Part shown: piece by piece, positions 16,871 through 20,815 of the stretch
Numbering within the stretch: position 1 is the first letter of the stretch
Layout: each line of letters starts with the position of its first letter
Origin: an uncultured Patescibacteria group bacterium
GTDB taxonomy: Bacteria; Patescibacteriota; Patescibacteriia; UBA2591; CALHIP01
Direction: 5' to 3'
Assembly (NCBI GenBank): GCA_938030745.1
Contig: CALHIP010000026.1
Coordinates: 16,404 to 80,403 of the forward strand
Length of the DNA: 64,000 bases
Notes under the pieces: generated by a model
The model's database searches: none
Told to the model about the DNA's origin: nothing
What the model saw: the letters and a program-made list of their open reading frames with translations, nothing else
Made by a program: the position numbers and the translations under genes

Positions 16871-17584
16871 TTACTGTCTTTTAAAGAGAAAAGTTTGTTG
16901 AAAGATGGTTAAAATTAAATTGACTAACCAATAAAGAACTAAACCACTTGGTAAACCTAAGCTAATAACAAATGTAAAAATAGGCATCATTACCTTCATT
17001 TGTTTATTAAGAACTCCCATCACTGACTCATTTTCCTTTCTTTTTTCTTTTGGCATCTTGACTAATGATCTTTTTGTTTCAAACATTTTTATTTGAAAAT
17101 ATTGAAAAAGGCCAGTTAATAAAGCTAAAGAAAAATTTTTTTCAGCTAAATTAAACAATCCAAAAGCAACTAAATTAAGTTGTCCTGGGTTTTTTATAAA
17201 TGGATAAAGAGGTAAAGTTTGACTAAAAAGACCAGTTCTGAAAACTTGATAGACAGCAATAAGAATTGGTAATTGGATGATTAAAAAGAAGAAGGGAGAG
17301 AATGGATTAATTTTATAAGTTTTATAAAGCTGAATTGTTTCCTGAGCAAGTTTTACTTTATCATAAGAAAATTTTTTCTTGATTTCTTCTAATTTCGGTT
17401 GAAGTTCGGCTAAAGATTTTTGAACTCTAATTTGTGAAAGAGATAAAGGATATAAAATTAGTTTAACAAAGATTGTTAAGAAAATAATTGATAAACCTAA
17501 ATCATAAAAACCAATAGTTTGATAGAAAAAGATTAAAAGATTTAAAAGAGGTTGATAAAAAATGAGGTTAAAAATTTTAATCAT
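16871..17584 (-). CDS. yidC: Membrane protein insertase YidC (short, Gram-positive-type)
   Basis: YQTIGFYDLGLSIIFLTIFVKLILYPLS, an amphipathic helix, and C-terminal LPSGLVLYWLVNLILTIFQQ. Confidence 0.8.
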   Translation of the reverse strand: MIKIFNLIFYQPLLNLLIFFYQTIGFYDLGLSIIFLTIFVKLILYPLSLSQIRVQKSLAELQPKLEEIKKKFSYDKVKLAQETIQLYKTYKINPFSPFFFLIIQLPILIAVYQVFRTGLFSQTLPLYPFIKNPGQLNLVAFGLFNLAEKNFSLALLTGLFQYFQIKMFETKRSLVKMPKEKRKENESVMGVLNKQMKVMMPIFTFVISLGLPSGLVLYWLVNLILTIFQQTFLFKRQ

Positions 17585-20496
17585 AATAAAATTACTGAAG
17601 CAACTTTGTCTTTTTTATCTTTAAGTTTAATTAATTTAACGCCCTGAGAAACACGACCTAAAATTGGAATGCTTTTTAAAGAAATTCTTAAAATTTGTCC
17701 TAAAAGAGAAGCAATAATTAAATCACCTTTTAAAAATTCGGAAAAATTTTTTTCATCAACAAAGAATAATTTAACCAATTTTCCTGTTTTTTCTGTCAAA
17801 CGATGGATTTTAATACCAGAGCCACCCCTTTTTTGAGAACGGTAAAAAGAAAGAGGAGAAAGTTTGCCATAACCAAATTCAGTAATTGAAAAAATTTTTG
17901 CCTCAACGGATTTTTTCTTAGGTAAAACTTCTAAAGCTATTAATTCATCATCTTGGCTTAATTTTATTCCCCTTAAACCTTTTGCTTCTCTTGAAAGTTT
18001 TCTAATTTCTTTTTCTGAAAATCTAATACCTTGACCATTTCGACTAACAAGGATTATTTCATCTTCGCCGGTTGAAGGTTTAACTGAAATAAGAGAATCA
18101 TCTTTTTCCAAACCAATAACTACTAAACCACTTTTTCTTATTTTCTTCAAGTTTTCTATCTCTATTCTTTTAACCATTCCCTTTTTTGTTGCAATGATTA
18201 AAAATTTTTGTGATAATTCTGAAGAGAAATAATTTTTTGACGAAACAGCTAAAACCGATGTAATCTTTTCATCTGAATTAAGAGAGAAGAAATTGGCTAT
18301 CGCCTCACCTTTTGAGGTTTTACTTTTCTCAGGAATTTCATAAGTTTTTAATTTAAAAACTTTGCCAGAATTAGTAAAAAATAAAATTTCAGAAAGGGTT
18401 GAGGTAAAAATAAGATGAGATAAAAGATGGTTTTCTTTTGTCTTTAAAATAATTGTTCCTTTTCCTCCTCTTTCTTGAACGCGGAACTGTTCTGGCGAAA
18501 CTCTTTTGAGATAGCTGTCTTGAGTTATAACAACTATTGTTGGTTTATCAGAAATAAAATCTTCTTCTTTAAATTCTTCAACTACTGTTTTAACAATTTT
18601 TGTCCTTCTTTCATCACCATATTTCTTTTTTAACTCTATAAGATCTTCTTTAATTAAATCAAGAATTTTCTTTGGCTGAGCTAAAATCAGACTTAAATTT
18701 TCTTTTTTCTTTTTTAATTCTTCAAGTTCATCCTTAATCTTTTGCCTTTCTAATTTAGAAAGTTGCCAAAGTCTTAATTCTAAAATCGCATTGGTTTGAC
18801 TTTCAGTTAAATTTAGTTTTTCAATTAAACTAATTTTTGCTTTTTCTTTATCTTTTGATTCTTTAATAATCTTTATTACTAAAGAAAGATTAGCTAAAGC
18901 TTTTTTAAAACCTTCTAAAACATGAATTCTTTTAATAACCTTATCAAGTTCCCATTCGGTTCTTCTTTTAATAACATTCTGCCGATGGTTTATATATTCT
19001 TTTAAAATATCTTTAAGGGAAAGTGTCTTTACTTCTAAACCTTCAACGAGAGCTAAAAAATTAAAATAAAAAGATGTCTCAAGTGGAGTAAAATTAAAAA
19101 GATAGTTAAGAACCTTCTCTGGATGAGCCTCTTTTTTTAAATCAATAACAATCCTTATTCCTTCTTTATCAGAAAGATCGCGAATATTTTTAATTTCTAA
19201 GATTTTTTTCTCTTCAATTAGTTGGGCAATTTTTTCAAGAATAGTTCTTTTTTCTACTAAATAAGGAATTTCTTTAATAATAATTTGATTTATTGAATCT
19301 TTTTTGAAAATTTCAGTCTTTGCTCTAATTACTATTTTGCCTCGACCAGAACTATATAAATCTTTAAGAATTTGGCCTCCAAAAACTATTCCACCAGTTG
19401 GGAAATCTGGACCTAAAATGAAATTCATTAATTCCGAAATTTCTGCTTCTGGATGATCAATTAAATAAATCAAAGCATCACAGATCTCAGAAAGATTATG
19501 AGGAGGAATATTTGTTGCTACTCCAACAGCAATACCTGAAACACCATTTAATAAAAGAAGAGGAATTCTTGCTGGTAAAACAACTGGCTCTTTTCTTGTT
19601 CCATCATAATTAGGAATAAAATCAATTGTATTTTTCTCAATATCTTTCAACATTTCTTCACCAATTTCTGAAAGTCTAGCTTCTGTATAACGATAGGCAG
19701 CCGGTTTATCTCCATCAATTGAATTATGAACAAAAACTCCAGCTGATAAAGCAAAATTGTGCCATGGTTCAGTAGTTAAATCATAAACATCTTCTTTTTT
19801 AAAAAGAACTTTTGTTTTCGTTACTTTTTTTGTTGAAAAACCCATTAAAGAATCGCCAGGCTTTAAATCTTTAGCCTGTTTATAACTACCATCTTCAAGC
19901 ATAAAAAGATGATCTAATGTAGATTTAATCTTTTCTTTATTATCTAAAATAATTTCTATTATTCTTTCATTTTTTCGCGTCAATCTTGGATTTTTGATTT
20001 CAGAAATTTCAATTTTTTTAGTTTTATGATTAAAAGTGAATGTCTGATATTTTTTCCCTTTTTTATATTCTTCAATCAATTCTTTAAAACTTAAATCTCT
20101 TCCATCAGAAATTTTTACTTTTGTATCTTTTGTAAAACAACCGAAATTTCCTTGACCTTCAATTAATGGATATCTTAAAGAAAAATCTTGGGCCATTCTA
20201 GCTAAAGCATCATAAACTGCCATATCACCATGTGGATGATAACGAGCTAAAACAGAACCAATAATGGAAGCTGATTTTCTAAATTTAGCATTATGATGAA
20301 GCCCATCTTCAAAAGCAGCATATAAAATCCGACGCTGAACTGGTTTTAAACCATCTCTGACATCAGGCAAAGCTCTTGAAACAATAACACTCATTGCATA
20401 ATCTAAATATGAATCTTGCATCTCTTCACCAATAGCTCTTTCTTCTATTTTTTCTTTAATTCGCGATTTTGTTTCATTATTTTTTTTATTCTTCAT
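17581..20496 (-). CDS. gyrA: DNA gyrase subunit A, interrupted in frame by a mini-intein
   Basis: RALPDVRDGLKPVQRRILY…HPHGD…GQGNFG / intein / SIDGDKPAAYRYTEARL, followed by the standard GyrA body and a beta-pinwheel C-terminal domain. Confidence 0.9.
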   Translation of the reverse strand: MKNKKNNETKSRIKEKIEERAIGEEMQDSYLDYAMSVIVSRALPDVRDGLKPVQRRILYAAFEDGLHHNAKFRKSASIIGSVLARYHPHGDMAVYDALARMAQDFSLRYPLIEGQGNFGCFTKDTKVKISDGRDLSFKELIEEYKKGKKYQTFTFNHKTKKIEISEIKNPRLTRKNERIIEIILDNKEKIKSTLDHLFMLEDGSYKQAKDLKPGDSLMGFSTKKVTKTKVLFKKEDVYDLTTEPWHNFALSAGVFVHNSIDGDKPAAYRYTEARLSEIGEEMLKDIEKNTIDFIPNYDGTRKEPVVLPARIPLLLLNGVSGIAVGVATNIPPHNLSEICDALIYLIDHPEAEISELMNFILGPDFPTGGIVFGGQILKDLYSSGRGKIVIRAKTEIFKKDSINQIIIKEIPYLVEKRTILEKIAQLIEEKKILEIKNIRDLSDKEGIRIVIDLKKEAHPEKVLNYLFNFTPLETSFYFNFLALVEGLEVKTLSLKDILKEYINHRQNVIKRRTEWELDKVIKRIHVLEGFKKALANLSLVIKIIKESKDKEKAKISLIEKLNLTESQTNAILELRLWQLSKLERQKIKDELEELKKKKENLSLILAQPKKILDLIKEDLIELKKKYGDERRTKIVKTVVEEFKEEDFISDKPTIVVITQDSYLKRVSPEQFRVQERGGKGTIILKTKENHLLSHLIFTSTLSEILFFTNSGKVFKLKTYEIPEKSKTSKGEAIANFFSLNSDEKITSVLAVSSKNYFSSELSQKFLIIATKKGMVKRIEIENLKKIRKSGLVVIGLEKDDSLISVKPSTGEDEIILVSRNGQGIRFSEKEIRKLSREAKGLRGIKLSQDDELIALEVLPKKKSVEAKIFSITEFGYGKLSPLSFYRSQKRGGSGIKIHRLTEKTGKLVKLFFVDEKNFSEFLKGDLIIASLLGQILRISLKSIPILGRVSQGVKLIKLKDKKDKVASVILL
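19723..20139 (-). mobile_element. Mini-intein (139 aa, Hint domain only, no homing-endonuclease domain) within gyrA
   Basis: Starts with Cys (CFTKDTKV, block A), has TLDH (block B TxxH), and ends VFVHN immediately followed by Ser+1. Removing it restores the contiguous GyrA sequence GNFG-SIDGD. Confidence 0.8.
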
Positions 20497-20815
20497 AAGA
20501 TTTATTTTCCTGATTAAGATATTCTAAAACTTTTTCTTTTAGTTTTTTAATCTCAGGGGGTACTTTCTCTTCTTTATTTTCAATTAAATTTAAATTAGAA
20601 ATTTTAAAACTTTTTATTTCTTGGAAGATGTTTTTAAACTCTTCTAAAAAACTTGAAGTTTCTTCTTCTAATTTTTTAGGCAGGACTTCTTGATATTTTT
20701 TTGTTTTAAATGTTAAGAATTTCAAATAAACTCGCCAAAGAATAAATAAAATTATAAAGGTAGTAATAACTAAGACCCAGAGGAAAGTTTTTTTTCTAAA
20801 CTCTTTTTCTTTCAT
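20486..20815 (-). CDS. Small N-terminally anchored membrane protein, unknown
   Basis: One TM helix (FLWVLVITTFIILFILW) plus a charged tail. Confidence 0.35.
   Translation of the reverse strand: MKEKEFRKKTFLWVLVITTFIILFILWRVYLKFLTFKTKKYQEVLPKKLEEETSSFLEEFKNIFQEIKSFKISNLNLIENKEEKVPPEIKKLKEKVLEYLNQENKSYEE

Follow-up and report, generated by a model that had tools for sequence, protein, structure and literature searches.

In an uncultured Patescibacteria group bacterium the gyrA gene very probably carries a genuine class 1 mini-intein, a self-splicing element lodged in an essential gene and the decayed end-stage of a mobile intein. It lies on the minus strand of a 64,000-nucleotide stretch of contig CALHIP010000026.1 (the window, whose positions are used throughout), where 139 amino acids (aa) interrupt the GyrA reading frame between the motifs GQGNFG and SIDGD, shortly before the catalytic Tyr. 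The first-pass annotation of this DNA, which left the strand unstated, had placed a 139-aa insert between GNFG and SIDGD, and the translation matches this exactly.

The insert and its splicing domain

Two curated equivalog models identify the interrupted protein as GyrA (NF004043, 995 bits, cutoff 902; TIGR01063, 958 bits, cutoff 877), and Pfam recognizes in it DNA_topoisoIV and six GyrA C-terminal blades. The open reading frame (ORF) is intact and full-length. Translation of 19672..20175 on the minus strand gives RYPLIEGQGNFG/CFTKDTKV...SAGVFVHN/SIDGDKPAAYRYTEARL, where slashes mark the junctions here and below, and the insert ends in HNFALSAGVFVHN. Its removal in frame restores a contiguous conserved host sequence as judged by alignments with solved GyrA chains. 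An alignment with GyrA orthologues had been proposed as a check in the first-pass annotation, and the solved structures do align gap-free across the junction: in S. aureus GyrA (6fqm) positions 6-110 correspond to residues 15-119 of our query and positions 111-248 to residues 259-396, with zero reference residues lost. The insertion is a clean one because a solved GyrA chain aligns collinearly on both sides of it with no residue missing. On this alignment the site is between the equivalents of E. coli G110 and S111, and the catalytic Tyr (E. coli Y122) is at position +12 of the C-extein, the distance of 12 residues that had been noted before. Positions in E. coli GyrA were counted by us along its known sequence, with the quinolone-resistance residues S83 and D87 as anchors.

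The insert itself has the anatomy of an intein (Table 1). Cys1, a TxxH block B (T74 and H77), a terminal H138-N139 and the Ser at +1, all of them listed in the first-pass annotation, are present in the translation, with H138-N139-S+1 together occupying 19720..19728 when the codons are read by hand. Alignments of 30-35 homologous mini-inteins show no variation at C1, T74, H77, N128 and N139 and very little at D120 and H138. The Pfam model Intein_splicing scores 61 bits on the insert against a cutoff of 35.8 (E=1.5e-16), TIGR01445 for the N-terminal splicing region scores 40.1 bits (cutoff 24.5) and TIGR01443 for the C-terminal splicing region 19.2 bits (cutoff 15.6); going by these scores, the match to intein models is far beyond chance. 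The best sequence match in the PDB is the NrdJ-1 intein (8ubs, E=3.8e-10), followed by DnaE, RadA and DnaB inteins. An AlphaFold2 model of the insert, built on an alignment of 35 homologous mini-inteins, has uniformly high confidence (pLDDT 98.1, pTM 0.90) and is placed by Foldseek close to NpuDnaE (4kl5, TM 0.85), NrdJ-1 (8ubs, TM 0.88, root-mean-square deviation 1.8 Å) and the Mtu RecA mini-intein (TM 0.86). The Ssp and Npu DnaB inteins also superpose on it, and TM over the Foldseek intein matches ranges from 0.82 to 0.88. As modelled, the 139 residues are a complete HINT domain with nothing extra. The absence of an endonuclease domain, likewise claimed earlier, and of a linker domain is apparent from the length of 139 aa, from matches to HINT families alone and from a model that consists of a single HINT domain. 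With all class-defining residues present, the insert is by its sequence and modelled fold a genuine class 1 mini-intein.

Class 2 and class 3 inteins have no N-terminal Cys or Ser nucleophile, and class 3 members are characterized by a WCT motif and a Cys in block F. Both classes are ruled out for the window intein, which starts with Cys1 and whose block F reads VYD, without a Cys; class 3 inteins are described in PMC5222942. A more radical alternative holds that the insert is not an intein at all but either a GyrA loop peculiar to the lineage or a bacterial intein-like (BIL) domain. Foldseek does list the BIL domains 6y75 and 2lwy, which share the HINT fold, but we give this interpretation practically no weight. 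BIL domains typically occupy variable regions of non-essential proteins, often without a +1 nucleophile. Here the insertion is exact and interrupts a motif that is universally conserved in the host protein, an essential enzyme, intein-specific models are passed, C1, the terminal HN and the +1 Ser are all there, and homologous inteins with homing-endonuclease inserts occupy the same site. A loop devoid of Hint blocks, which the first-pass annotation had named as the finding that would speak against an intein, is excluded by the curated intein models and the HINT fold, and the loop or BIL reading as a whole is effectively refuted by the intein models, the clean insertion and the HN/S ending of 87 of 87 same-site inteins.

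A foreign-composition signal was sought in the intein via its GC content and not found, the value being within the range of the host gene. No further inteins were detected in the window with a family hidden Markov model run on six-frame ORFs or with Pfam on nine large ORFs.

Table 1. Coordinates of the gyrA precursor, the predicted intein and its residues in the window
Feature	Position	Strand	Remarks
gyrA precursor ORF	17581..20496	minus	971 aa and stop; sole long ORF over the region
N-extein	20140..20496	minus	GyrA residues 1-119; ends in ...RYPLIEGQGNFG; residue -1 is Gly
Predicted class 1 mini-intein	19723..20139	minus	139 aa; precursor residues 120-258
Block A nucleophile Cys1	20137..20139	minus	invariant in the family alignment
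S73	19921..19923	minus	TCT; just before the block B Thr
Block B, T74-L-D-H77 (TLDH)	19909..19920	minus	codons read by hand
Putative deletion scar, GFSTK	19828..19842	minus	intein residues about 100-104; from alignment with longer homologues
Block F region, V118-Y-D120-L-T-T-E-P-W-H127-N128	19753..19785	minus	D120 nearly invariant, N128 invariant
Block G, H138-N139	19723..19728	minus	HN in 87 of 87 same-site inteins
C-extein	17581..19722	minus	GyrA residues 259-971 and stop
C-extein +1 Ser	19720..19722	minus	precursor Ser259; corresponds to E. coli S111; Ser in all 87 same-site inteins
Catalytic Tyr codon	19687..19689	minus	precursor Y270; C-extein +12; corresponds to E. coli Y122

A widespread family at one insertion site

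The first-pass annotation overstated the rarity and the interest of this insert, since hundreds of deposited genomes contain an intein at this site and minis of 139-190 aa recur among them. An exhaustive HMMER search over 1.84 billion representative proteins (E≤1e-3) yielded 5161 relatives, with 76 full-length mini-intein domains of 132-160 aa in the top 150 proteins, and about two dozen of the top matches are GyrA interrupted at the same junction. A genome scan covering one genome per species (185,579 species), based on patterns for the junction (GQGNFGCF) and block B with confirmation by tblastn, gave at least 594 relatives, which need not all be GyrA as the block B pattern may match inteins in other hosts. 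The best 80 of these loci, to which the taxa and lengths given below refer, all give matches that run from the flanking GyrA N-extein into the intein. According to their titles they comprise Patescibacteria of the Candidate Phyla Radiation (CPR; Nealson-, Pacei-, Wildermuth-, Davies-, Staskawicz- and Yanofskybacteria, Parcubacteria), other bacteria (Omnitrophota, Elusimicrobiota/Endomicrobiia and a Clostridia metagenome-assembled genome, MAG) and archaea of the DPANN group (Woese-, Pace-, Nano- and Micrarchaeota) and the Thermoplasmata. Both the intein family and the insertion allele are very abundant, and the window intein is an ordinary representative of them; the GyrA sequence of the window is itself already deposited in NCBI, ENA and Logan. 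Cultured-phage genomes contained only distant relatives, at most 38% identical. We found no published name or description of a GyrA insertion at G110/S111; the literature gave only 'GyrA-a' (M. xenopi), the site tables of PMC4760082 not being covered.

The same-site inteins from MAGs (among them L003 with 187 aa, L004 with about 525 aa, L059 and L054, and L009, Nealsonbacteria CP179889) have an identical junction, GQGN[FWM]G/CF...HN/S, and a splicing core 60-75% identical to that of the window intein, and two of them, L059 and L054, match its length of 139 aa. The window copy differs from them in having S73 instead of Cys and GF instead of MP at the scar. In L007, L009 and P0035 the C-extein just past the junction is one residue longer and divergent, reading SIDDPSEFAAMRY as opposed to SIDGDxxAAxRY, which shows that variation is tolerated in the loop leading from the junction to the catalytic Tyr.

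The intein could be delimited automatically in 72 of the best 80 loci, the remaining 8 having flank sequence variants or contig ends and not different sites. Most lengths fall into two sharp classes, 391-394 aa and 522-528 aa, beside a tail of 139, 139, 150, 150, 156, 166, 170, 181, 187, 216 ... 348 aa, and most copies keep a 250-390-aa module composed of an HNH motif and repeats. The extra segment of the longer homologues (10-390 aa) sits between ...DSLMP and NHKV..., where the window has GFSTKKV; aligned to the long homologues, the window intein has its gap between DSLM and KKV. In the long forms this segment carries the motif RHHxDFNKLNNNPxNIxRxxWxxHWxxH (VRHHIDFNKLNNNPNNI...H) and, in both of those tested, matches the PHROG HNH endonuclease family 7545 with E about 5e-5. 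The motif also aligns to a segment of P0050 that Pfam calls HNH_3, and it is because of the PHROG match and this alignment that we assign the module to the HNH type. A PDB sequence search with the long-form insert gave nothing meaningful. After the HNH motif come W-x-x-P-E-Y-R-x-K-like repeats, many but variable in number, as in L012 (526-aa intein, 3001 onward), L082 (391 aa), L004, L007 and L009. These repeats match only PHROG 22215, a family of unknown function, and zero Pfam families; they may be a modular DNA-binding array.

Ranked by identity over the splicing core, the nearest relatives of the window intein are 187, 522, 192, 463, 150 and 524 aa long (75-70% identical). Such an interspersion of mini, intermediate and full-length relatives is what repeated independent endonuclease loss predicts under the standard homing cycle, and we infer a loss of the endonuclease, not a gain, with the window copy as a deletion derivative. 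The intein core is up to 75% identical between genomes, while GyrA C-extein residues 259-560 are at most 57% identical, with the best values in Nealsonbacteria and Paceibacterota loci, and identity between the window and its relatives reaches about 84% over a 99-aa segment of the N-extein. For the splicing core the window intein was compared with L003-L005, and for the exteins the comparison was made with L005, L015 and L037. This weak contrast between intein and extein identities hints at horizontal spread, including between domains, with which it is compatible without constituting proof. Bacterial and DPANN archaeal copies of the intein are 60-70% identical.

A word-indexed protein search with the intein alone returned one match, a 92-aa fragment (P0001), the method being too insensitive for this lysine-rich sequence. 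P0001 corresponds to L001 1194..1472, a 92-aa called gene that starts inside GyrA (MRYPLIKGQGNFG/CFTK...) and ends just past block B; it lies on a 1.9-kb contig as a truncated gene and is almost identical to the full-length L004. It was set aside as evidence for the family, as it is probably an assembly chimera, a fragment or a broken copy.

Public genomes already contain hundreds of GyrA inteins at this site, and the single copy in the window adds little to them. The family is more useful, because a single site presents the homing cycle in all its stages, from forms of about 525 aa and about 392 aa through intermediates to minis of 139 aa, and because it uses an HNH-type instead of a LAGLIDADG endonuclease and crosses the boundary between bacteria and archaea. 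It also supplies many natural minis of 139-190 aa, predicted to splice in cis at a Gly(-1)/Ser(+1) junction, among which tools for protein engineering could be sought by screening. The usefulness for engineering that the first-pass annotation had seen in the window copy is plausible, but this copy is not special in that respect.

Predicted splicing and competing explanations

Canonical cis-splicing of class 1 is the best-supported account of the window intein. If the residue-by-residue chemistry of this established mechanism applies to it, the precursor would be translated as one 971-aa chain from which the 139-aa HINT domain removes itself. Splicing would begin with an N-S acyl shift at Gly(-1)-Cys1, helped by T74 and H77 of block B, after which a trans-esterification would move the N-extein onto the side chain of Ser+1. 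Cyclisation of Asn139, helped by H138 and the block F residues D120 and H127, would then free the intein, and a final O-N shift would create the native peptide bond ...GQGNFG-SIDGD.... The expected products are an 832-aa GyrA with the junction peptide ...GQGNFGSIDGDKPAAYR and its catalytic Tyr 12 residues past the junction, and an excised 16-kDa intein. Should splicing occur in this way, self-removal of the intein would be an obligatory maturation step for the essential gyrase. As to its history, a mobile intein with an HNH-plus-repeat module would have lost the endonuclease module by internal deletion, and the window copy would now persist only because gyrase function needs precise splicing. 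We infer that it does splice because the ORF is intact, the catalytic residues are conserved and the insert interrupts a universally conserved segment near the catalytic Tyr.

Several points weigh against this interpretation. Splicing is deduced from sequence and predicted fold. An intein-free gyrA copy might conceivably exist elsewhere in the genome, our view being limited to 64 kb; within that window there is no second gyrA and no parC. Pfam called no HNH or other endonuclease family on two long same-site inteins. Finally, the presence of S73 in place of a near-universal Cys could conceivably lower or alter splicing activity: of the 87 other same-site inteins examined, 85 have a Cys just before the block B Thr, and L068 is the only other one seen with a Ser at this position. 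The S73 codon TCT is one base away from TGT.

One rival idea is that of a splicing-dead HINT remnant. The gyrA copy would then be non-functional with another copy doing the work, or the enzyme would tolerate the insert; the Ser beside block B, an endonuclease already gone from an element in its decay phase and a genome view of 64 kb all fit such a scenario. We nevertheless consider it highly unlikely. Every residue known to be required for class 1 splicing is intact, the ORF is full-length with an equivalog-level GyrA score, and the model is a complete and very confident HINT fold. In addition, to judge from the structures 1ab4 and 6fqm, a 16-kDa domain that splits GNFG-SIDGD 12 residues before the catalytic Tyr would hardly be tolerated.

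The intein might on the other hand be active and have been domesticated as a conditional switch, with splicing gated by redox, temperature or stress and gyrase controlled post-translationally. Conditional splicing has been proposed for other replisome inteins (PMC4760082), and the location of the window intein next to the active site of a replication enzyme would fit the replisome clustering of inteins described there. The persistence of endonuclease-free mini-inteins in many lineages points in the same direction, and it may be speculated that the change from Cys to Ser beside block B bears on redox control. However, the sequence contains nothing specific to regulation, and the persistence of the intein is fully explained by the difficulty of a precise intein deletion at an essential site, which leaves the switch a very unlikely explanation. 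A wider version of it, in which an endonuclease-free copy of the cross-domain HNH-plus-repeat family (CPR, Omnitrophota, DPANN) is kept as a gyrase gate in this reduced-genome bacterium and the Cys73-to-Ser change marks an altered redox sensitivity, also strikes us as very unlikely.

Other GyrA inteins and more distant relatives

The intein of mycobacterial GyrA (Mxe/Mle; NF038098 GyrA_w_intein) shares with the one described here the host protein, class 1 chemistry (Cys1 ... HN) and closeness to the catalytic Tyr. The Mxe GyrA intein is a natural mini-intein of 198 aa. It inserts directly after the catalytic Tyr (..RY/C...HN/T..), whereas the window intein is found at G/S, 12 residues upstream, and the +1 nucleophile is Thr in the former and Ser in the latter. 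The window protein falls short of NF038098 (744 bits against a cutoff of 1850); no close sequence kinship to the mycobacterial intein was seen, and the PDB sequence matches of the insert include no Mxe GyrA structure. That the two sites are distinct, as the first-pass annotation had supposed, is borne out by other GyrA proteins that carry inteins at both (MRY/C...HN/TE for the mycobacterial site). Full-length inteins at this site (the second inteins of P0032, P0035 and P0045) carry LAGLIDADG-like sequence, in contrast to the HNH-type motif in the family of the window intein. The mycobacterial intein is named GyrA-a in PMC5050341, and 50 GyrA inteins were reported in Actinobacteria, Aquificae, Chloroflexi and Proteobacteria by Novikova et al. 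2016 (PMC4760082).

A second intein at MRY/C[VI]TGD...HN/TE beside the G/S intein was seen in P0032, P0035, P0045, L039, L049, L054 and L074, and P0114 and P0134 have another intein upstream, at VVGE/C...HN/CLGxYHPHGD. Counting the inteins at G/S, Y/T and VVGE/C, a stretch of about 50 residues around the quinolone-resistance-determining region and the catalytic Tyr of GyrA contains at least three insertion points.

The best matches among solved structures, NrdJ-1 (8ubs) and NpuDnaE (4kl5), have about 140-150 aa and are thus similar in size to the window intein, which also has in common with NrdJ-1 a block B of the C-T-P-D-H type. Both are naturally split and splice in trans, reside in other hosts and are 23-27% identical, whereas the window intein is contiguous and predicted to splice in cis. 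Its closest relatives outside GyrA are phage-like proteins: mini-inteins from phage-like metagenome sequences (P0050, P0151, P0123, P0002 and P0003) share the signature CFTGDT...GVFVHN/S and score 120-138 bits to the window intein. Their hosts and insertion sites differ from it, there are often several inteins per protein, and some have Pfam HNH_3 endonucleases. Intein_splicing stretches number four in P0002 (2039 aa), a T4-like portal protein, and six in P0003 (3009 aa), a family A DNA polymerase; P0050, P0151 and P0123 have in common the junction ...DHPxGG/CFTGDT...HN/SKD.

Next to gyrA, an ORF of 109 aa without family assignment (20486..20815, minus strand) overlaps the gyrA start codon by 11 bases, and its product has a hydrophobic N-terminal stretch.

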